Shown piece after piece: positions 5,652 to 17,172 of a stretch of DNA of 60,117 nucleotides. The position numbers were made by a program, and so were the translations under genes. The notes beneath the pieces are model-generated. The model searched no databases, was not told where the DNA came from, and saw only the letters and a list, made by a program, of their open reading frames with translations. The DNA lies in contig JAGOHL010000017.1 of assembly GCA_017996215.1 (NCBI GenBank), forward strand, positions 1-60,117. The letters run 5' to 3'. The stretch's first letter is position 1. Each line of letters opens with the position of its first letter. The stretch comes from Nannocystaceae bacterium. GTDB taxonomy: Bacteria > Myxococcota_A > Polyangia > Nannocystales > Nannocystaceae.

Positions 5652-6386
5652 TCAGCACAGGCCGATGCCGAGGTCGCAGACGCACACCATCGACACGCAC
5701 TCGGCGGTGCAGCTGTCGGCCTCGCTGCAGCCGATGACGCAATCGCTGCCGCACGTCAGCGTACAATCGCTGCCGGTGTGACAGCTCTGATTGCAGCTCT
5801 CGGCGCAGTCGAACGTGCAGTCGCCACCATCGCAGCTCTGCTGGCAGTCCGCGCCGTTGCAGGTGAAGTCACAGGTCGCCCCGGCATCGCAGTCCTGCGG
5901 GCAGCCGCCGCCGTCGCAGCTGAACGTGCAGGTCGCCCCGGCCGCGCACTCCTGCTGGCAGCCACCACCCGAGCAGGCGAAGCTACAGACCTGACCGGAA
6001 TCGCAGATCTGGCCGCACCCGCCGGCGGGGCAATCCTCGCCCGCACCGGTCTCGGCACCGGTGGGATCGGTGTCACCACTGTCGCTGGTGTCGGCGCCGG
6101 TGTCGGCGGTGGTGCCGGCGCTCGTGCCGGCGCTCGTGCCCGCGCTCGTGCCCGCCGTCGTCCCGGCGCTCGTGCCCGCCGTCGTCCCGGCGCTCGTGCC
6201 CGCCGTCGTCCCGGCGCTCGTGCCCGCCGTCGTGCCTGCGCTCGTCTGCGAGTCGCCGGTGTCACCGCCATCGTCGGCGTCGTCGCCGGTGGTCAACACG
6301 CAGCCGCCGGAGGGCACTGCAAGGCCGAGGGTGAGCAGGGCGGGGAACAGCAAGGAGTTCAGGGGAGCGCGCAGCTTGGATGACAT
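5652..6386 (-). CDS. Secreted lipoprotein with (SAGTTAGT)n low-complexity linker and four Cys-rich repeats (C..GATC.F.C.GG.C.Q.C)
   Basis: Signal peptide and lipobox-like segment LLTLGLAVPSGGC. 12/24-bp DNA tandem repeats at ~6100-6260. Four copies of a Cys-rich module. Confidence 0.7.
   Translation of the reverse strand: MSSKLRAPLNSLLFPALLTLGLAVPSGGCVLTTGDDADDGGDTGDSQTSAGTTAGTSAGTTAGTSAGTTAGTSAGTTAGTSAGTSAGTSAGTTADTGADTSDSGDTDPTGAETGAGEDCPAGGCGQICDSGQVCSFACSGGGCQQECAAGATCTFSCDGGGCPQDCDAGATCDFTCNGADCQQSCDGGDCTFDCAESCNQSCHTGSDCTLTCGSDCVIGCSEADSCTAECVSMVCVCDLGIGLC
6100..6260 (-). repeat. 12-bp tandem repeat (ggcgctcgtgcc / ggcgctcgtccc) within the lipoprotein gene, ~12 copies
   Basis: Direct repetition in the sequence encodes AGTS/AGTT repeats. 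Confidence 0.8.
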
Positions 6387-8381: not shown

Positions 8382-9758
8382 CTACCCGACCGGTGGCGGA
8401 GGCGGCGGCGGCTTGTCGTGGCACACGCTGATCTCGAGGATCATGTACAGCAAGATGAGCTCCTGCGGATTCAACCCGGGGTGGGCGACGCTGGAGTTCT
8501 CGAAGGTGCTGTACATCATGCGGCCGCAGCCCCACTGACCGCTGATCGCCATGGGGCGGATCTTCGTCGGGTCGCTGCAGCTCGTGCACGGGCCCTCGAC
8601 CCAGGTGTGGTGGCCGACGTCGACGTCCATGCCATCCTCGTCTTGCACGATGATCGGCGTGGTCGACTCGATGCCAGAGTAGTTGAGCTGCAGCTCGACG
8701 CTCGGCAGCGCGTTCAGTGTCGGGTTGCCGCCGCCGATGTCCTTCAAGCCAGGCGGCAGCGCCTGCAGCCACGCGAGCAGCTCGTCATCGACCACGCTGC
8801 CGTTCACGTCGTAGGCGGGCTGGATGTCCGGCATCCCCGGCGAGTGGAACTCTTGGTAGTCGGCGAACGGGGCCTCGATGTACTCGTTCGAGTGATCGGT
8901 GGCGTACCACTTGCCGCCGCCGGCCACGTAGTCGCGGATGTTCTGCGCGCGGAGGATCGGCACCGACGGCGCGCCCAGCCAGAACTTCGTCGCCGCGCAG
9001 GGCACGAAGATGATGTGGTACTGGCTCATGCCGATGAAGTCGTCCATGAACGCGCCCTGATCGGAATCCGAGATCAACGTGAACTGCTGCGTGCCGGGCA
9101 CGAGCTCGCCGTTGGCGGACACCTCGCCGAGCCCGAACTTCGCGAGCACGTTGAACACGCGATCGGGATCGGTCTCGTACACCGCGATCTTGGGGATCCA
9201 CATGCCCGCCGCGGGGTTCCATTCGCCGGGTAGGCTGCTCTGCTCGGCCGGCACCGGGTTGCCGCCCTCGACGACGTCGAAGTCGACGACGCGGAGGAAC
9301 TCGCCCTTCTGCACCACCAGCTGCTGGCCGGGGCCCGCGGTCGCCGGCAGCGAGAAGCTGCCGTCGGGCTCGGTGAGCACGAACGGCGTGTCGCACGAGA
9401 GCTCGACGCACGACGAGCAGTAGACCTTGTCGGGCACCGGCTCGACCTCGTCGTCGGTGAGGTAGACCAGCGCGCCGCTGATCGGGATCTGCATGTTGGG
9501 CGCGTAGACCGTGCCCGTGAGCGTCGCGTTGGACCCGGGCAAGGGCGGGCAATCGTTGCCGCCCTCCTCGCCACCGCCGGTCACACCCCCCTCGCCGATG
9601 TCGAAGCGCTCGCCGGTGTCCACCCCGATCGGGCCCGTGCTCGGGCTGCTCCCCGCGGTGTTGGCCGTGACGCTGACCTCGACGGGATCCTCGCGCACCG
9701 TGGTCCCACACGCCCCAAGCGACAGGGACACGACCGACAGCAGTGGCACGGCGCGCAT
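8382..9758 (-). CDS. Secreted lipoprotein with carboxypeptidase-regulatory-like N-domain, C-terminal poly-Pro tail; function unknown
   Basis: Internal ATG at 9758 gives MRAVPLLSVVSLSLGACGTT (signal plus lipobox). TGTVYAPNMQIPISGALVYL resembles a CarboxypepD_reg beta-sandwich. The ORF extension upstream of 9758 is junk-like. Confidence 0.7.
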   Translation of the reverse strand: MRAVPLLSVVSLSLGACGTTVREDPVEVSVTANTAGSSPSTGPIGVDTGERFDIGEGGVTGGGEEGGNDCPPLPGSNATLTGTVYAPNMQIPISGALVYLTDDEVEPVPDKVYCSSCVELSCDTPFVLTEPDGSFSLPATAGPGQQLVVQKGEFLRVVDFDVVEGGNPVPAEQSSLPGEWNPAAGMWIPKIAVYETDPDRVFNVLAKFGLGEVSANGELVPGTQQFTLISDSDQGAFMDDFIGMSQYHIIFVPCAATKFWLGAPSVPILRAQNIRDYVAGGGKWYATDHSNEYIEAPFADYQEFHSPGMPDIQPAYDVNGSVVDDELLAWLQALPPGLKDIGGGNPTLNALPSVELQLNYSGIESTTPIIVQDEDGMDVDVGHHTWVEGPCTSCSDPTKIRPMAISGQWGCGRMMYSTFENSSVAHPGLNPQELILLYMILEISVCHDKPPPPPPPVG

Positions 9759-9903: not shown

Positions 9904-11208
9904 TCATAGACACGCGCAGAGGTTGATCGCGCCCGGCGACACACCGTAGGGACCCGCGTCGCAGTGGCTGATCGCGACCTTCGGGCCCCGCGAGTGCGCA
10001 CAGACCGAGGCCGGACACACGCCGAACGGAACATACACGCCACACGTGTCGAGCGGGAGCAGCTCGATGACGTCCTTCACCACGCCGGCGCCACCGATGA
10101 GTCCGCCGAGGCCACCGTCAGGGCGGGGCGCCTTCTTCGCTTCGGCAGCGATGGTGGTCGCGAGCATCTGCATCGGTTCGGTCGTGCCGCGGCCCACGAA
10201 CGCGTGGCTGCCGTCGTCGCCGCGAAACCACACGTCGCCGCAGACGGTCCGCATGTCGCCGCCGTCGAGTTCGTCGAGCAGCGATGCCGCGCCGAGGTTG
10301 AAGCGGTCGGCGGTCGTGAAGCTCGCGCCCGCGAAATCGATGGCAACGGTGAGGCCACCGGTGCTGTCGAGGGTTGCCGCTTCGTCGGCCGCGAGCCGTA
10401 CACCGATGCGGAACTCGGGCAGCTCCTGCAGCGGGAACGCAACGGAGTACAGGTTCTCCGCGGGGTCGAAGTCGCCGGGCGTCACGACGATCTCCACCGC
10501 CGTCGTGCCCTCCAGCACGTCGACGATCGATGGCGTCCGCTCCTCGATCGGCGATGCCGTCATCGTGCCGAGCGCACCAGGACGCAGGACCCAGCTCGCC
10601 TCACCCGCATCGGCATACGGCAGTGCCGACTCGTAGTTGCCCGCCGTGTAGGCAGCGACCAGGTCGCTGCTGTCGACATCGCCATCCCCATCGAAGTCGC
10701 CCTCGGCCCAGCCGACCTCGCCATCGACGTCGGGCGACTCGTAGTGCCCAGACTCGAACATCGCGACGAGATCGTCCGACCCGAAGCGACCATCGCAGTT
10801 CGCATCGCCCGGCTGCGGTCGCAGCAGCGTGATCTCTGCATCGACGGAGCCAGACACCGTCACGGTGTGGTAGCCCGGCGCGACGCCGGCGTCGGGCAGG
10901 ATGAGCGCGACGAAGCGCCCCGACCCGCTGGGCGCGAGCTCGAGCGGGAAGCCGTCGAGCGTCGCATCGAGCGCGAAGACGCCCGCCGTCTCCTCGACCG
11001 AGCCATCGAAGCCGACCGCCAGGATTGCGCCCTCCCCATGCGGGGTCCAGCAGTGCGGCGCGGCGAGGCGGCCGTCGAGCACGGCCGCCCAGGTCGCCGC
11101 AGGCGTCTGCGCCCGCGTGGGGTTCTCGAGCTCCAGGGCTGCGCGGGGACTCTCGTTGTCCGCGCAAGCAACGAGGACGAGCAAGGTCATGAGGTGATGT
11201 CGACACAT
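9904..11208 (-). CDS. Secreted lipoprotein with dockerin-like Ca-binding repeat pair and Cys-rich C-terminus
   Basis: ATG at 11208 (GGAAG 9 nt upstream) gives MCRHHLMTLLVLVACADNE. DANCDGRFGSDDLVAMF...GDFDGDGDVDSSDLVAAYTAG is a dockerin type I-like tandem. The C-terminus carries 8 Cys. Confidence 0.7.
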   Translation of the reverse strand: MCRHHLMTLLVLVACADNESPRAALELENPTRAQTPAATWAAVLDGRLAAPHCWTPHGEGAILAVGFDGSVEETAGVFALDATLDGFPLELAPSGSGRFVALILPDAGVAPGYHTVTVSGSVDAEITLLRPQPGDANCDGRFGSDDLVAMFESGHYESPDVDGEVGWAEGDFDGDGDVDSSDLVAAYTAGNYESALPYADAGEASWVLRPGALGTMTASPIEERTPSIVDVLEGTTAVEIVVTPGDFDPAENLYSVAFPLQELPEFRIGVRLAADEAATLDSTGGLTVAIDFAGASFTTADRFNLGAASLLDELDGGDMRTVCGDVWFRGDDGSHAFVGRGTTEPMQMLATTIAAEAKKAPRPDGGLGGLIGGAGVVKDVIELLPLDTCGVYVPFGVCPASVCAHSRGPKVAISHCDAGPYGVSPGAINLCACL

Positions 11209-11315
11209 GTTCATTTGCTTCCACCATCCGCGGCCGCCGGCCGCCATCGGGTTCGCAGATGGATTGCCGGTCGAGTCGAAACGGATGCATGATTTCGTGT
11301 GGTCGGGTGGGTGGC

Positions 11316-13865
11316 ATGACGGGTGGTGATGGCGACGACGCGGCGTTCGGCCGTGCGCTGGGAGACGTGCGGCAACTCGAGCTCGCGGACGAAGCGACCG
11401 TGCGCGCCGAGCTGTTCGCGCGGATGGGCATCGCTCCGATCGCCCCGCGCCTCGGAGGTCGCTACACACTCGGTCGTCGCCTCGGAAGCGGCGGTTCTGG
11501 GGCGGTCTACGCCGCGCGTGACGACAAGCTCGGTCGCGACGTCGCCATCAAGCTCGTGCGCGTCGGCGGCCTCGATGGCTTCGATGACTCGGCCTCCGAG
11601 GGTCGACTACGCCGCGAGGCGAGAGCCATCGCGCGTCTCGCCCATCCGAACATCGTCGCGGTGTTCGATCTCGGTCGCTACGACTTCGGCGAGCTCGGCT
11701 ACGAGCTCGCCGACGCTCCGGCGCGCGGCCTGTACCTCGTCATGGAGCTCGTCGACGGTGGTGACCTCGCCGGGTGGGCGGCCTCGGGGGCGAGCTTCGC
11801 CGCGCGCATCGAAGTCTTGATCGGCGTCGCCCGCGGTCTGCACGCAGCTCACGGCGCGGGCCTGGTCCACCGCGACGTCAAGCCGGCGAACGTCATCATC
11901 GCCCGCGACGGGACGCCGAAGCTCGCGGACTTCGGTCTCGCGCGCCCCCCGGCGGAGACGACCCGAGATGCCGGGTCAGCGGACGATGACGAGGCGCCGC
12001 GCGACGACGTGACGGCACACGGCACGGTCGTCGGAACGCTGCCGTACATGGCGCCCGAGCAGTTCGGCGGCAGCTCGAGCGCCGCAAGCGATCAGTACGC
12101 GTTCTGCGTCACGGCGGTGGAAATCCTGCTGGGTGAACGGCCGTTCGTCGGTGACGCGAGCGAACAACTCGCGGCGAAGCGCGCTGGCCGAGCCCCCGCG
12201 CTCGAGCGACTGCCGCCGCGACTGCGCGCTGCGCTGCAACGCGGCCTGTGCACGGATCCCGCGGATCGATTTGGGTCGATGCTCGAGCTGAGCGAAGCGC
12301 TCGCCCCGGCGCCACAACGGCGCTTCGCACTCGTCGGCGCCGCGGCGCTCCTCGGCATCGCACTCGCAGGGTGGATCGCCACCCCCGACGACGCCTGTGC
12401 ACCGCTCGCGCGGGCCGCCAGTGCGGTCGAGCGCATGCCGTCGGCGGCCGCACTCGCCGCGACACTCGAAGACGAGGCATCGCGCCTTCGCGCCACACAT
12501 GCGGCCTGCCTCACCCTCGACGACCCGGACACGCGCGCGTGCATGGGCCAGCGTGGTCGTCAGCACGAGCGCCTGCTCGCGAGTCTCGGCGACATCGATG
12601 CCCCTGCGATGCTCCGAGCGTTCCACGCGCTACCCCCCGCCGACGAGTGTGTCGCGCTGCGTGCGGTCGCGTCGGCACCGCCCGAAGCGCTCCGCGACGG
12701 TGTCGATGCCGTGCACGAGTTCGTCGTCACCGCACGAGCACTCGCCGACGCAGGCGAGCTCGAATCTGCAGCGGTCCAGGCGGGTCACGCCATCGCGACC
12801 GCACGGCGCCTCGACTGGCCGCCGGCGCTCGTCGAGGCCAGCATCGTGCACGCGCACGTCGAGTTCGGCCTCGGCCGGGTCGACGCCGCAGAGATCGAGC
12901 TCGTCGACGCCTACTGGTCGGCGGTCGAGCTCGGCAATCTGCCGGAGACCGAGCGCGCGGCTGAGCATCTCGCCCACCTGCACGGCCGTCCTGGAGGCGA
13001 CCGCGGCGAGGCGGAGCGCTGGGAGAAGCGCGCGAATGCCTCGCTCGACGGCATGGGCCGACCACCGTTCGTCGAGGCTCGCCTCGCCGCGATCCGCGGT
13101 GCGAACCGCAACGCGTGGCACGACGAGCCGGCAGCCATCGTCGAGTTCCGCCACGCGCTCGCACTGCTCGAAGCGCAGGGTCTCGACTACCGTCGACAGA
13201 TCGCGACCCTGTCGAGCAACCTCGGCGAGATGCTCACACGGACTGGCCAGCACGCCGAGGCGGAGCGCATGCTGCTGCGTGCGATCGAGCTCGGCGACCC
13301 GGAGGGCATCGCATCGGTTCCCGCCCTGATGCACCTCTCGACCCTGCGACGATCGCAACAACGCCTCGACGAGGCCGACGCGCTGATCCGCGACGCGATT
13401 GCGCGGCTCGACACGGCGGCACCTGCCGGCCATCCATGGCGCGGGCAGATCTTCAACAACCTCGGGGTCATCGCAACACTGCGGCCGGACTTTGCGTCCG
13501 CGGCCGACGCGTTCGCGACCGCGGTGCGATCGCACGAGCAGCTCGGCCTGCGCGACGCAGCGTGGGCGGGGTACCACAAGAACTGGGCCACCGCGGCGGC
13601 GCGCATGCACGAGTGGAGCACGGCGATCGAGCACTTCGAGATTGCGCTCGCGGTGCTCACGAGCGCCGACCCTCGCCGCGACCAAGCGCTCGTCGGCCTC
13701 GCCGAAGCCAACCTCGAACTCGGTGACGTCTCGGCCGCCGCGACCCGCCTGCGCGAGGTCGACCCGTCCCTGCTGGCCCGCGATGCGAGCATGGTGGCCG
13801 AAGTCGACGCGCTGCGCGCTCGCATCACCGCCGCCGAGGCCGAGCGGATAGGATCCCCCGAGTGA
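11316..13865 (+). CDS. Ser/Thr protein kinase (Hanks-type) with long C-terminal TPR/helical repeat domain
   Basis: Gly loop LGSGGSGAVYAA, VAIK, HRDVKPANVII, DFGLA, APE motif. ~590-aa C-terminal helical region. Start at ATG 11316 with GGTGG upstream. Confidence 0.9.
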   Translation: MTGGDGDDAAFGRALGDVRQLELADEATVRAELFARMGIAPIAPRLGGRYTLGRRLGSGGSGAVYAARDDKLGRDVAIKLVRVGGLDGFDDSASEGRLRREARAIARLAHPNIVAVFDLGRYDFGELGYELADAPARGLYLVMELVDGGDLAGWAASGASFAARIEVLIGVARGLHAAHGAGLVHRDVKPANVIIARDGTPKLADFGLARPPAETTRDAGSADDDEAPRDDVTAHGTVVGTLPYMAPEQFGGSSSAASDQYAFCVTAVEILLGERPFVGDASEQLAAKRAGRAPALERLPPRLRAALQRGLCTDPADRFGSMLELSEALAPAPQRRFALVGAAALLGIALAGWIATPDDACAPLARAASAVERMPSAAALAATLEDEASRLRATHAACLTLDDPDTRACMGQRGRQHERLLASLGDIDAPAMLRAFHALPPADECVALRAVASAPPEALRDGVDAVHEFVVTARALADAGELESAAVQAGHAIATARRLDWPPALVEASIVHAHVEFGLGRVDAAEIELVDAYWSAVELGNLPETERAAEHLAHLHGRPGGDRGEAERWEKRANASLDGMGRPPFVEARLAAIRGANRNAWHDEPAAIVEFRHALALLEAQGLDYRRQIATLSSNLGEMLTRTGQHAEAERMLLRAIELGDPEGIASVPALMHLSTLRRSQQRLDEADALIRDAIARLDTAAPAGHPWRGQIFNNLGVIATLRPDFASAADAFATAVRSHEQLGLRDAAWAGYHKNWATAAARMHEWSTAIEHFEIALAVLTSADPRRDQALVGLAEANLELGDVSAAATRLREVDPSLLARDASMVAEVDALRARITAAEAERIGSPE

Positions 13866-14473
13866 CGGAGATCGGTGACGAAGCGCTGCTCGCGGCATGG
13901 CAGGCCGGCGACAAGGCTGCCGGCGACGTGCTCGTGCGACGCTACTTCTCGCTGCTGTTCCGATTCCTCAAGCCGCGTGTCGCCGAGCACACGGCCGACC
14001 TCGCGCAGCGCACGTTTCTCGCCATCTCGCAGTCACACGAGCGGATCCCTGCGGGCGTCAGCTTTCGCGCCTGGCTCCTGGGGGTCGCGCGCAACCAACT
14101 GCTCGCGTTCGGGCGCGCGAGCGCAAGGCGCTCTCTCGTGGTCGGCGGCGCGCCGATCTCGGGGGTCGCAGGCGACGCGACGCCCAGCGAAGTCGTCGCG
14201 CACCGCGAGGAGCAGCGCGTCTTGCTTCGCGGACTGCGAACCCTCCCGATCGAGATGCAGCTCGTGATCGAGCTCTTCTACTGGGAGAACATGTCGCGGG
14301 AGGAGATCGCGGCGGTGCTCGGCGTCGAGACCAATACCGTCAAGTCGCGACTGCAGCGCGCCAAGGATCGCCTGCGCGAGCTGCTCCCGCGGCTCGATCC
14401 CGTGACCGGCAGCGTGACGGCGGCCGATCTGGAGCGCTGGGCGCAGTCACTGCGTCCGCCGGATTCGGCCTGA
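13862..14473 (+). CDS. ECF-family RNA polymerase sigma-70 factor
   Basis: GTG start overlaps the kinase stop (GTGA). Region 2 (RAWLLGVARNQLL) and region 4.2 (YWENMSREEIAAVLGVETNTVKSRLQRAKDRLRE) are present. Confidence 0.88.
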   Translation: MTEIGDEALLAAWQAGDKAAGDVLVRRYFSLLFRFLKPRVAEHTADLAQRTFLAISQSHERIPAGVSFRAWLLGVARNQLLAFGRASARRSLVVGGAPISGVAGDATPSEVVAHREEQRVLLRGLRTLPIEMQLVIELFYWENMSREEIAAVLGVETNTVKSRLQRAKDRLRELLPRLDPVTGSVTAADLERWAQSLRPPDSA

Positions 14474-14638
14474 CGCGAGTCCGTCGACGCCGCGAACCAC
14501 TGCGCCCCCGTTGCGAGTGTTCTCCTCCGGCCGCACCCGACGGTCGGGACACCGGTCGAACGATCGTCCGCTGCGCGCTACCGATCGATCACGCGACCTC
14601 GGGTTGCATGCCCCGCGTCGTCCGGCACCCTGTCCGCG

Positions 14639-16156
14639 TTGTCGAACGAGACCACCGCGGTGCGCAGCCTCGTTCCCGCGCGGATGGACCGCCTGCCGTG
14701 GAGCGGGTTCCACTGGCGGGTCGTCATCGCGCTCGGCATCACATGGGTGCTCGACGGCGTCGAGATCGGTCTCGCGAGCGCGATCGGTGACACGCTGCGC
14801 GACGAGCAGACGCTTGGCCTCGACGCCCAGACCATCGGCTTCAGCGCGGGGTTGTACCTCGCGGGTGAGGTCACCGGCGCACTGTACTTTGGTCGCAAGG
14901 CCGACGAGCTCGGCCGCCGGCGATTGTTCATCGTCACGCTCGCGCTCTACCTGCTCGCGAACGCACTGACGGCGCTGTCGTGGACGACGTGGTTCTTCGT
15001 CGCGACGCGCTTCTTCGCGGGCATGGGAATCGGCGGCGAGTATGCGGCGATCCACAGTGCGATCGACGAGCTCACGCCCGCGAAGTACCGAGGCCGGGTC
15101 GACATCGCGATCGCCGGCACGTACTGGGGCGGCGCACTCCTGGCCGCGACGGCGCAGCTGCTGCTGCTCGATCCCGAGCTCATTCCGATCGACCTCGGCT
15201 GGCGCCTCGCGTTGCTGCTCGGTCCCGTGATCGGCCTCGCGATCTGGCCGCTGCGCAGGTTCATCCCCGAGAGCCCGCGCTGGCAGCTCACACACGGCTA
15301 CGAACAGGAGGCCGAGGCCACCGTCGCGCGCATCGAGGCCGGCCTGCGCGACGCGGGCGTGCAGCTCGACGACGTCGATCCCGCGCACGCCATCGTGCTG
15401 CAGCGCCACGACCTCGGCCTCGTCGAGGTGGGCAGGATACTCGTGACGAAGTACCTGCGACGGTTGTGGCTCGCCGCGACGCTGATGATCACGCAGTCGT
15501 TCCTCTACAACGCGATCTTCTTCACCTACGTGCTGATCCTGCGCGACTTCTACGACGTGCCGAGCGCATCCGTCGGCTGGTACATCTTCGCGTTCGCCGG
15601 CGGGAATCTGCTGGGCCCGTTCGTGCTCGGGCCAGCGTTCGACACCATCGGGCGACGCAAGATGATCGCGGCGACCTACTGCACGTCCGCGCTCTTGCTC
15701 GCGATCACGGCGTGGCTGTTCGGCCGAGGCATGCTCACGGCGCAATCCCAGACGGTGCTGTGGTGCGTGATCTTCTTCATCGCATCGGCCGCGGCATCGT
15801 CGGCCTATCTCACCGTGAGCGAGATCTTCCCCGTCGAGATCCGCGCGCAGTCGATCGCACTCGTGTTCGCCGTCGCGCAGGGGGTCGGCGCCACGGCACC
15901 GGCGATCTTCGGGGCAATCATCGAGGCGGCAAAGGACCCCGCGACCGGTGCGGTCGTCTCACGTCTGCCGCTGGCGCTGGCGTACCTCGGCAGCGCGGCG
16001 ATCATGGCCGGTGGTGGCGTGGTGGCGTGGCTGTTCGGCGTCGATGCCGAGCAGCGATCGCTCGAAGACATCGCGCCGCCGATCACCTCGGTCGCGGTGT
16101 CGCATGCGACAGCCGCCGATGCGCCGGCCGGTCCGCCTCCGCCCGGCACCGTCTGA
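14639..16156 (+). CDS. MFS transporter
   Basis: 12 predicted TM segments. MFS signature around GRKADELGRRRLF (G-x-x-x-D-R/K-x-G-R-R). TTG at 14639 or ATG at 14684 (MDRLPWSG...). Confidence 0.88.
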   Translation: MSNETTAVRSLVPARMDRLPWSGFHWRVVIALGITWVLDGVEIGLASAIGDTLRDEQTLGLDAQTIGFSAGLYLAGEVTGALYFGRKADELGRRRLFIVTLALYLLANALTALSWTTWFFVATRFFAGMGIGGEYAAIHSAIDELTPAKYRGRVDIAIAGTYWGGALLAATAQLLLLDPELIPIDLGWRLALLLGPVIGLAIWPLRRFIPESPRWQLTHGYEQEAEATVARIEAGLRDAGVQLDDVDPAHAIVLQRHDLGLVEVGRILVTKYLRRLWLAATLMITQSFLYNAIFFTYVLILRDFYDVPSASVGWYIFAFAGGNLLGPFVLGPAFDTIGRRKMIAATYCTSALLLAITAWLFGRGMLTAQSQTVLWCVIFFIASAAASSAYLTVSEIFPVEIRAQSIALVFAVAQGVGATAPAIFGAIIEAAKDPATGAVVSRLPLALAYLGSAAIMAGGGVVAWLFGVDAEQRSLEDIAPPITSVAVSHATAADAPAGPPPPGTV

Positions 16157-16185: not shown

Positions 16186-17172
16186 TCAGCGTGGGCGATC
16201 GTGTCGATGCACCCGGTGCGGCCGATGCCGCCCCGGCGGCTGCGCGCTCGCTTCGGCGACCGCGTCCTCGGCGAGGAAGCGTTCGGCCACGTCGACGTGC
16301 TCGTCGAAGTACTGCTTCTCCTGCGGAGAGCAGAACGCGAAGGTCTTGCCTGCCAGCGTCGAGGTCAACGTGGGATCGGCGTCCATCCAGCACAGCGGGC
16401 ACTTCGGTGCGGCCGAGCCGGCATCGGGCATGCGAGCGTACTCGCCGTTCGACGCAGCGTCGTGCCACCCCGGCCCTTGGTACTCCATGCCATCGGCGAT
16501 CGAACGAGCGCTGGACTCTCCGAGATATCTTGCGACCACGCGGAGTGCGAGGTCGATCCCCGACGAGATTCCGCCGGACGATGCGAGGTTGCCCGACTCG
16601 GTGAAGCGCGCCCCCCGAAGCACGGAGACCGCTGGAAAGTCGCCTGCCAGGCGAAAGTAGCCCCCGTGATGCGCCGTCGTCGCCTTGCCGTCGAGCAGTC
16701 CCGCGCGGGCGAGCACGAAGGCACCGTTGCACACCGACATCGTGACGTCGGTCTCGGGTGAGACGGTGCGGAGCCACTCCAGCATGTCGGGCGTCTCGCC
16801 GGTCAACGCGGGGATCACGACGACCTTGGGTGGCGGCGCGTCGGCGAAGGTGTAGTCGGGGATCACCTGCATGCCGCCGAACACACGCACCGGATCGCGC
16901 GTCTGCGCGACGAAGTACGGCTCGAAGAGCGGATGTCCATCCTCCGTCCACGCCGCCGCGAAGACCTCGAGTGGCCCCGTGAAGTCGAGCACTTCGGCGT
17001 CGGGCCCGAGCACGATCGCCAGCGGCAACTCGCCGCCGGGCGGGACCGGCAGCGGCGAGGGGACCTGCGTGGCCGCTCGCGCGACCGGCTCGGCCGCCGC
17101 GTCGAGCGGTGCGTGGCGATCCGATGGGCCGCGCGCGCACGCGACGACAGCAAGTGTGAGCGCGAGCCTCAT
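16186..17172 (-). CDS. DJ-1/PfpI family (class I glutamine amidotransferase-like) lipoprotein with C-terminal YHS domain
   Basis: Internal ATG 17172 gives MRLALTLAVVACARG. DJ-1/PfpI core around the nucleophile-elbow Cys (TMSVCNGAFVLARAGLLDG). C-terminal KCPLCWMDADPTL...KTFAFCSPQEKQYFDEH is a YHS/TRASH-type metal-binding module. The upstream ~2.9 kb of the ORF is antisense junk. Confidence 0.82.
   Translation of the reverse strand: MRLALTLAVVACARGPSDRHAPLDAAAEPVARAATQVPSPLPVPPGGELPLAIVLGPDAEVLDFTGPLEVFAAAWTEDGHPLFEPYFVAQTRDPVRVFGGMQVIPDYTFADAPPPKVVVIPALTGETPDMLEWLRTVSPETDVTMSVCNGAFVLARAGLLDGKATTAHHGGYFRLAGDFPAVSVLRGARFTESGNLASSGGISSGIDLALRVVARYLGESSARSIADGMEYQGPGWHDAASNGEYARMPDAGSAAPKCPLCWMDADPTLTSTLAGKTFAFCSPQEKQYFDEHVDVAERFLAEDAVAEASAQPPGRHRPHRVHRHDRPR

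Follow-up and report, generated by a model that had tools for sequence, protein, structure and literature searches.

A conserved gene pair of a Hanks-type receptor kinase and an ECF sigma factor in a Nannocystaceae bacterium and its relatives

Introduction

Sigma factors of the extracytoplasmic function (ECF) group ECF43 carry several hallmarks, namely a co-encoded Hanks-type kinase, the lack of an anti-sigma factor, and an uncharged region 2.2 that replaces the DxxD motif (PMC8999054, PMC13147305). Here we describe a gene pair of comparable design from a Nannocystaceae bacterium (assembly GCA_017996215.1), in which the gene for a Hanks-type Ser/Thr receptor kinase overlaps the gene for an ECF sigma factor (Table 1). 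The pair lies on contig JAGOHL010000017.1, of which positions 1 to 60,117 (60,117 nt) were analysed; this whole stretch is referred to as the window. The locus is a real kinase-ECF module, strongly conserved and of known design, and not a new kind of system, while its sigma factor belongs, as judged from sequence, to a family distinct from the characterised ECF43 proteins and with a signature of its own.

In ECF43 the region 2.2 consensus is QTTA, with a phosphorylated Thr at position 3 in 88% of the members (PMC13147305), and the corresponding motifs of two individual proteins are STTA in EcfP and QATE in EcfK (PMC8999054, PMC13147305). EcfP, a Vibrio parahaemolyticus sigma factor, is activated by the kinase PknT through phosphorylation in region 2.2 (Iyer et al. 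2020, as described in PMC8999054). The kinase PknS of Xanthomonas citri phosphorylates EcfK at T51 and, in the linker, at T104, T106, S108 and S110, the last two in vitro; either one of T51 and T106 is sufficient (PMC13147305). For pT106 of EcfK, a pocket of positive charge in beta-prime has been described.

Beyond ECF43, synteny has pointed to further kinase-associated groups, namely ECF59-62, ECF217, ECF267 and ECF283, together with subgroups of ECF27, ECF40 and ECF210 (PMC7826278). The non-ECF43 kinase-linked groups keep a DAED-like motif and have Ser/Thr residues in or near it, and their mechanism, which may differ from that of ECF43, has explicitly been left open (PMC8999054). A hallmark of ECF267 is a FecR-like tetratricopeptide repeat (TPR) protein encoded at position +1, in addition to the kinase (PMC7826278; bioRxiv 10.1101/2019.12.11.873521).

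Results and Discussion

A kinase gene is the only widely shared neighbour of the sigma factor gene

Relatives of the window sigma factor were collected in several ways. A word-index search returned 26 clear relatives (E 1e-123 to 1e-29), and those among them that carry a name come from Nannocystaceae or from metagenome-assembled genomes (MAGs) of Myxococcota; the named members of the family as a whole are likewise Myxococcota. When 1.84 billion representatives of clusters at 50% identity were searched with the family profile, 1,406 matched at E <= 1e-30, indicating that the family is large, and the best 150 of these 1,406 matches span the full profile, including its C-terminal extension. A scan of a genome collection contained true family members only in L001-L003 among 80 loci, and synteny was studied with a metagenome scan, which supplied 80 further family loci at sigma identities of 35-54%.

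A Hanks kinase open reading frame (ORF) directly adjoins the sigma gene in 24 of the 27 non-redundant family loci with flanks of 3 kb or more on each side. The two genes occur in four arrangements (9 loci with kinase then sigma, 9 divergent, 4 with sigma then kinase and 2 convergent), and the adjacency is seen even at sigma identities as low as 36%; it is missing from L003, L109 and L111, with a kinase about 3.2 kb away in the last. By comparison, only 3 of 77 unrelated control ECF loci, fetched by the same patterns as the family loci, have a kinase within 10 kb. When the ORFs flanking the sigma gene in 31 family loci were clustered, a kinase was found within 3.5 kb in 29 of them, while the next neighbour cluster was common to only six, which makes the kinase the only widely shared neighbour (antisense shadow ORFs of the kinase also cluster in this comparison). 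The adjacency of the kinase and sigma factor genes is beyond chance, and the sigma factor has a kinase in its conserved neighbourhood, the general mark of kinase-associated ECF sigma factors.

These 31 loci share no second conserved neighbour, and none of the genes within about 5 kb of the window sigma gene encodes an anti-sigma domain recognised by Pfam, although an anti-sigma factor may be encoded elsewhere in the genome. An earlier note on this DNA, made from the sequence alone, had stated that no anti-sigma gene is adjacent and had proposed conservation of the kinase-sigma synteny in relatives as a check on the pairing; the former is borne out and the latter is answered by the 24 of 27 loci. 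The same note had described an 849-aa Hanks kinase with a TPR-like C-terminal domain, joined to the sigma gene by a 4-nt GTGA overlap with a GTG start, and the gene calls, the Pfam matches and the sequence of the junction agree with this description and with its coordinates.

At the junction, positions 13860-13869 read gaGTGAcgga, the kinase stop and the sigma start sharing 4 nt, and the guanine plus cytosine (GC) content by codon position shifts from the frame of the kinase to that of the sigma factor right there. The position of the sigma start is the same in homologues of 88-99% identity. The overlap suggests that the two genes are co-transcribed, and translation of the sigma factor is probably coupled to that of the kinase through it. 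Scans for sigma-70 promoters and intrinsic terminators over 11000-14800 returned no match, and are uninformative at the base composition of the window (about 70% GC).

Close junctions recur among the relatives. In P0002, at 88% sigma identity, a 4-nt overlap joins the sigma gene to the gene upstream, whose product shares 73.5% identity with the C-terminal part of the window kinase. The kinase-sigma junction is a 4-nt overlap in locus L081, an 8-nt overlap in P0013 (L085) and a 9-nt gap in P0008 (L082), and a reversed pair, with the sigma factor before the kinase, overlaps by 4 nt in P0012 (L084); the kinases of P0013, P0008 and P0012 have TPRs. Among gene-called relatives in general, pairs on one strand either overlap or lie 9-39 nt apart. 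A TPR kinase is divergent from the sigma gene in P0005, the adjoining kinase of P0025 is without TPRs, and no adjacent kinase is present in the gene-called contig of P0017.

Some loci depart from the one-to-one arrangement. The family members of L003 (10001-10642), L109 and L087 (2739-3353) have no kinase within 6-10 kb, and the sigma gene of L003 sits between a CorA-like gene and a gyrB/gyrA-like pair. In other loci, two or three ECF sigma genes surround one kinase: L086 (347-5774) has the order sigma, ffh, sigma, kinase, sigma, and L088 (1373-5722) encodes a 317-aa sigma factor, then a kinase on the opposite strand, and then the family sigma factor. The arrangement of L086 and L088 suggests that one kinase may serve several sigma factors. 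The window itself is without a second kinase or a second sigma factor of the same type.

The sigma factor belongs to a family with a signature of its own

The window protein consists of sigma2 and sigma4 domains only and falls in the size class of about 200 residues, as expected of ECF (group 4) sigma factors: Sigma70_r2 covers residues 24-88 (27.1 bits, cutoff 24), Sigma70_r4_2 covers residues 120-171 (50 bits), and TIGR02937 reaches 70.6 bits (cutoff 42.9). An AlphaFold2 (AF2) model of the protein has a predicted local distance difference test (pLDDT) value of 82, and its top fold matches are sigmaE, AlgU, SigL and SigW. The best sequence and fold matches lie with the systems sigmaE/RseA, AlgU/MucA and SigW/RsiW, which the window pair also resembles in the two-domain sigma2/sigma4 structure and in a co-encoded partner that is a single-pass membrane protein (predicted as such in the window). 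It differs from them in that the partner is a kinase without an anti-sigma domain, in the replacement of the Glu of the QE pair by Arg or Lys, and in an additional C-terminal extension.

The signature was defined by residue frequencies in 88 non-redundant family sequences, set against those of the 77 control ECFs. Alignments to SigL and SigE and the alignment by hidden Markov model (HMM) place the HTADLAQRT of the window on the canonical DxxDxxQE plus one residue (H43-T44-A45-D46-L-A-Q49-R50). At position 50, where QE has its Glu, an acidic residue occurs in 2% of the family as against about 87% of the controls, and Arg or Lys in 70% of the family, with Arg50 in the window. Position 51 is Ser or Thr in 100% of the family and in 34% of the controls (T51 in the window). 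Elsewhere in the motif, position 46 (Asp in the window) is acidic and Q49 present in 100% of the family, and position 45, an Ala in the window, is acidic in 81%.

Two further elements lie outside region 2.2. Within the sigma2-sigma4 linker, residues 95-104 have pLDDT values below 50 in the AF2 model and are predicted to be disordered; in the family, positions 100 and 107 are each Ser or Thr in 78% of the sequences, position 108 is Pro in 84%, and position 109 is Ser or Thr in 70%. About 25 residues follow region 4 and form the family-specific extension, with the motif T..DLE.WA.SLR, whose Trp is present in 73 of the 74 family sequences that reach this column. The AF2 model has helices at 183-188 and 190-196 in this part, which could be a docking or an autoinhibitory element. 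The same trends, in a looser form, are seen in 148 further representatives.

Membership in ECF43 was judged by proxies, namely a full-length match to PF07638, similarity to EcfK and the region 2.2 motif. The EcfK sequence used for this was rebuilt to about 94% from the peptide tables of PMC13147305, and lacks the seven residues that follow position 38 and about four at other places. PF07638 matches EcfK with 95.2 bits over positions 4-183 of 185 and the window sigma factor with 26.7 bits over its region-4 part only, whereas region 2 of the window protein matches an ordinary Sigma70_r2. Against the family HMM, built from the 88 sequences, EcfK scores 18.2 bits, the lowest of 78, while the ordinary ECFs, 77 proteins from many phyla, reach 66-138 bits; BLASTP between the window protein and the rebuilt EcfK aligned only residues 1-32. 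In addition, the ECF43 phospho-Thr (EcfK T51, position 3 of DxxD) aligns to Ala45. By these motif and sequence proxies, the window sigma factor is not an ECF43 protein.

The overall interpretation offered in the earlier note stands in principle as a kinase-ECF pairing, while the particular assignments that it attached fall away. Its ECF43-type label fails on the HMM score of EcfK, the coverage of PF07638 and the Ala at the phospho-Thr position. The conserved Thr that it proposed to look for in region 2 has no good candidate in T44, which we considered as an ECF43-like phospho-site and rejected: it is present in only 6 of the 88 family members, and xTAD motifs occur in ordinary ECFs as well. 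The downstream major facilitator superfamily (MFS) transporter, seen in the note as a possible target, was likewise rejected as a conserved one, as what lies downstream of the sigma gene is different in each relative examined, that of 88% sigma identity included.

Comparison with the two ECF43 proteins nevertheless brings out several parallels. As with EcfK, the gene of the window sigma factor adjoins a kinase gene with no anti-sigma factor present, an acidic residue is kept at position 4 of DxxD (QATE in EcfK), and the linker carries a Ser/Thr cluster, in which T107 and S109 stand opposite S108 and S110 of EcfK in the HMM alignment. EcfK differs in retaining, as E56, the Glu of the Q/H-E pair, to which Arg50 of the window corresponds, and in having no counterpart of the C-terminal Trp extension; the window locus, for its part, has no type VI secretion system context. 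With PknT/EcfP the pair shares an adjacent Hanks kinase in place of an anti-sigma factor and, in principle, the idea that phosphorylation supplies negative charge missing from the core-binding face of region 2.2. EcfP has STTA for DAED, without acidic residues and with a single phospho-Thr at position 3; HTAD of the window keeps the Asp of position 4, lacks a Thr at position 3, and loses its charge at position 8 (Glu to Arg).

The groups defined by synteny resemble the window family in their conserved kinase neighbourhood, usually with no anti-sigma factor, and the published account of non-ECF43 kinase-linked groups (PMC8999054) fits the family. They differ in taxonomy, since they belong to Planctomycetes or Actinobacteria, except for ECF267 and ECF210 (Proteobacteria, a label that then included myxobacteria). 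As regards the hallmark of ECF267, no FecR domain was found in the kinase, in the window neighbours or in the annotated neighbours of eight relatives, and the +1 gene of the window is the MFS transporter.

We also would like to mention the best-scoring control against the family HMM (138 bits), L052 from a Polyangia MAG (sigma 10001-10573), which has QQ for QE in region 2.2 and whose locus contains two kinase-domain matches; it probably belongs, as a distant member, to the same kinase-linked family. An acidic residue at position 1 was considered as a marker of kinase-less members and discarded, for it is Asp or Glu in the kinase-less L003, L087 and L109 but also in the kinase-linked L124, L142 and L158.

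The kinase has the predicted layout of a membrane receptor

The kinase ORF of 849 aa runs from an ATG at 11316 to a TGA at 13865, and codon-position GC gives a coding signal in this frame from about 11300 to 13865; an alternative in-frame ATG upstream, at 11259, would give a protein of 868 aa. The kinase has the full set of motifs by which Hanks-type kinases are recognised, comprising the P-loop (GSGGSG, 57), the VAIK lysine (76), HRDVKPAN (185), DFG (205) and APE (246), and the kinase domains of PknA and PknB are its top PDB matches (E about 1e-38).

A membrane helix that the earlier note did not mention follows the kinase domain. It is preceded by RR and followed by DD, a positive-inside charge pattern, from which the TPR part is predicted to lie outside the cytoplasm; in this predicted topology the kinase domain would be cytoplasmic, and the Cys-rich and TPR regions extracytoplasmic. 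The four cysteines next to the membrane are each kept in 71-77% of 35 kinases adjoining family sigma factors, no Pfam family covers the region between them (residues 361-445), and the pattern would fit a periplasmic module, held by disulfide bonds, that precedes the TPRs. Among the repeats, TPR_12 matches above its gathering score in three stretches (E 4.5e-13), whereas TPR_10, TPR_16 and TPR_19 are weak matches, under their gathering scores.

By predicted topology, this is the receptor layout of PknS and PknT, with a cytoplasmic kinase, a single helix and an extracytoplasmic sensor region. The likeness to PknS extends to size (833 aa as compared with 849 aa) and to the order of parts, both having a cytoplasmic Hanks domain, one membrane helix and periplasmic TPRs, the latter two predicted for the window kinase. 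In most of the adjacent kinases that are full-length, a membrane helix comes 250-315 residues after the kinase domain begins, and the tail measures 400-600 aa. Judging from this common layout and the four cysteines, the kinases adjoining family sigma factors are one receptor-kinase subfamily.

Table 1. Features of the kinase-sigma locus, in window coordinates, with residue numbers referring to the respective protein
Feature	Position	Strand	Basis
Hanks-type Ser/Thr receptor kinase gene	11316..13865	+	ORF, codon-position GC, Pfam Pkinase and TPR
Cytoplasmic kinase domain (predicted location), residues 50-320	11463..12275	+	Pfam PF00069, E 1.8e-34; motifs complete
Single predicted transmembrane helix, residues 337-355, FALVGAAALLGIALAGWIA	12324..12380	+	Hydropathy window 1.86 and sequence
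Juxtamembrane four-Cys module, predicted extracytoplasmic (C361, C398, C409, C445)	12396..12650	+	Conservation among adjacent kinases
TPR-like repeats, residues ~607-817, predicted extracytoplasmic	13134..13766	+	Pfam TPR_12 and weak TPR_10, TPR_16, TPR_19
Shine-Dalgarno-like AGGA within the 3' end of the kinase gene	13850..13853	+	Sequence; 8 nt 5' of the sigma GTG
GTGA overlap (GTG, sigma start; TGA, kinase stop)	13862..13865	+	Sequence
ECF sigma factor gene, 203 aa	13862..14473	+	Pfam Sigma70_r2 and Sigma70_r4_2, NCBIfam TIGR02937
Region 2.2 core-binding motif HTADLAQRT, residues 43-51	13988..14014	+	Alignments to SigL, SigE and EcfK
sigma2-sigma4 linker, residues 95-109, with S100 and T107-P108-S109 as candidate phospho-acceptors	14144..14188	+	AF2, family conservation
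Sigma region 4, residues 120-173	14219..14380	+	Pfam PF08281, E 2.3e-13
Family-specific C-terminal extension, residues 183-198, GSVTAADLERWAQSLR, Trp193	14408..14455	+	Alignments A1 and A2, AF2

Proposed direct sigma factor phosphorylation and its alternatives

We consider it reasonably probable that the two genes form a module in which the kinase replaces an anti-sigma factor and directly phosphorylates and activates the sigma factor, probably in the linker. The kinase would be a single-pass membrane receptor whose periplasmic Cys-rich and TPR region senses an envelope or extracellular cue, and it would be made together with the sigma factor by co-transcription and, probably, by translational coupling through GTGA. 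Once activated, it would phosphorylate the sigma factor directly, and the added negative charge would permit productive binding to the RNA polymerase core and turn the regulon on, the phosphate compensating for a core-binding surface that the Glu-to-Arg change at position 50 would have weakened. The likeliest acceptors would be S100 and T107-P-S109 in the disordered linker; this cluster has the same location as T106, the functionally required linker phosphosite of EcfK (PMC13147305), which lies two residues upstream of the sites aligned to T107 and S109. We infer in this scheme that phosphorylation is direct, which residues accept it, how the kinase is placed in the membrane, and that the effect is activation rather than inhibition. 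It is the best-supported reading in our analysis, and draws on the conserved and specific pairing, the kinase subfamily, the lack of a visible anti-sigma factor, the sigma signature and the PknS/PknT precedent.

Several observations weigh against this scheme. Asp46 is kept and residue 45 is acidic in 81% of family sequences, and the ECF43 principle, with its region 2.2 devoid of charge, is therefore inapplicable. T51 is one helical turn from the invariant, core-facing L47 and may be buried and structural and not an acceptor. R50, T51, the linker S-P-S and the C-terminal motif are all retained in the kinase-less L003, L109 and L087, which would mean either that these features are not tied to a neighbouring kinase or that a kinase encoded elsewhere is used. 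A mirror-tree comparison of the sigma factors with the kinase domains gave a Mantel r of 0.73, which falls to r = -0.01 for pairs below 60% sigma identity, and so reflects shared descent and co-inheritance only, without a signal of co-evolution. Finally, a shared ECF-type promoter was sought as dyads of a 5-mer and a 4-mer separated by N14-19 in the 220 nt upstream of 43 loci in which the sigma gene is first or divergent; the best dyads occur in 12 of the 43 loci, against 13 for the reverse-complement control and 7-9 for shuffles, and thus give no signal.

Part of this evidence would suit a rather different arrangement, which we regard as fairly unlikely, in which the kinase is an output or co-regulated partner of a sigma factor that autoregulates the operon and is itself controlled by its C-terminal extension, by transcription or by a distant anti-sigma factor. 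The Trp extension is indeed family-wide and is kept, along with R50, T51 and the linker motif, where no kinase is near (L003, L109, L087); short C-terminal extensions have been proposed as regulators in other ECF groups that lack an anti-sigma factor (PMC7826278), and myxobacterial genomes hold hundreds of Ser/Thr kinases, many of them TPR-tailed (PMC11032199). However, the adjacency is maintained through four gene orders, two of which (divergent and convergent) rule out co-transcription, and it therefore speaks for a functional pairing of the two proteins beyond shared expression. The sigma-adjoining kinases, moreover, form one subfamily with a common Cys module, and the only kinase-ECF pairs that have been studied experimentally use direct phosphorylation (PMC13147305, PMC8999054). 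The abundance of kinases in Myxococcota, for which PMC11032199 cites 317 in Sorangium cellulosum, could also be invoked for a fortuitous adjacency in a kinase-rich genome; this is refuted by the 24 of 27 related loci as against 3 of 77 controls, and the persistence down to 36% identity and the kinase being the sole conserved neighbour also speak against it.

The kinase might, alternatively, act as a membrane-anchored anti-sigma factor in its own right, its cytoplasmic part sequestering the sigma factor until signal-induced phosphorylation of the kinase or of the sigma factor sets it free. The stop/start overlap would provide the stoichiometric production that suits a binding partner, membrane anchoring is as in classical anti-sigma factors, and the neighbours include no other candidate for this role. 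Against it, the cytoplasmic part of 336 residues is made up of a short N-terminal tail and a standard kinase domain, in which Pfam finds no anti-sigma domain, and the charge reversal on the core-binding surface suggests an intrinsically weak sigma factor and not one in need of restraint. We hold such sequestration to be improbable.

Direct activation by the kinase, if true, would carry the phospho-sigma principle beyond ECF43 and would provide a direct route from kinase to transcription in myxobacteria, where orphan Ser/Thr kinases number in the hundreds. A bolder proposal, possible but on balance doubtful, is that the family is a large, separate class of kinase-dependent ECFs that works differently from ECF43, in which the charge reversal of the QE Glu (to Arg or Lys) cripples the sigma factor, phosphorylation of the linker S...[ST]-P-[ST] activates it, and the Trp extension possibly serves as a kinase-docking or autoinhibitory element. 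What matters here is that in a sizeable family a receptor kinase like PknS goes together with a sigma factor outside ECF43, and that this family offers testable residues (R50, S100, T107, S109 and W193). For the specialist the pairing holds little surprise, and the family provides a concrete starting point for work on the control of non-ECF43 kinase-linked sigma factors.

Surrounding genes

Downstream of the sigma gene the window encodes the MFS transporter (14639-16156; Pfam Sugar_tr, 7.7e-39), then a protein of the DJ-1/PfpI type, a methyltransferase and a protein resembling metalloproteases. Divergent from the kinase gene are two genes for proteins with lipoprotein signals and no Pfam match (9904-11178 and 8382-9746, both on the minus strand), the former of which contains two DxDGDGxVDxxD loops that are dockerin-like or EF-hand-like. 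Further away, 5655-6386 (minus strand) encodes a secreted protein, also without a Pfam match, in which a long (TSAGT)n low-complexity run is followed by many CxxGxxC repeats. The DJ-1/PfpI-domain protein (16189-17172, minus strand) has an N-terminal signal-like sequence and, at its C-terminus, a Cys motif not named by Pfam, CPLCWMD...FCSPQEKQYF.

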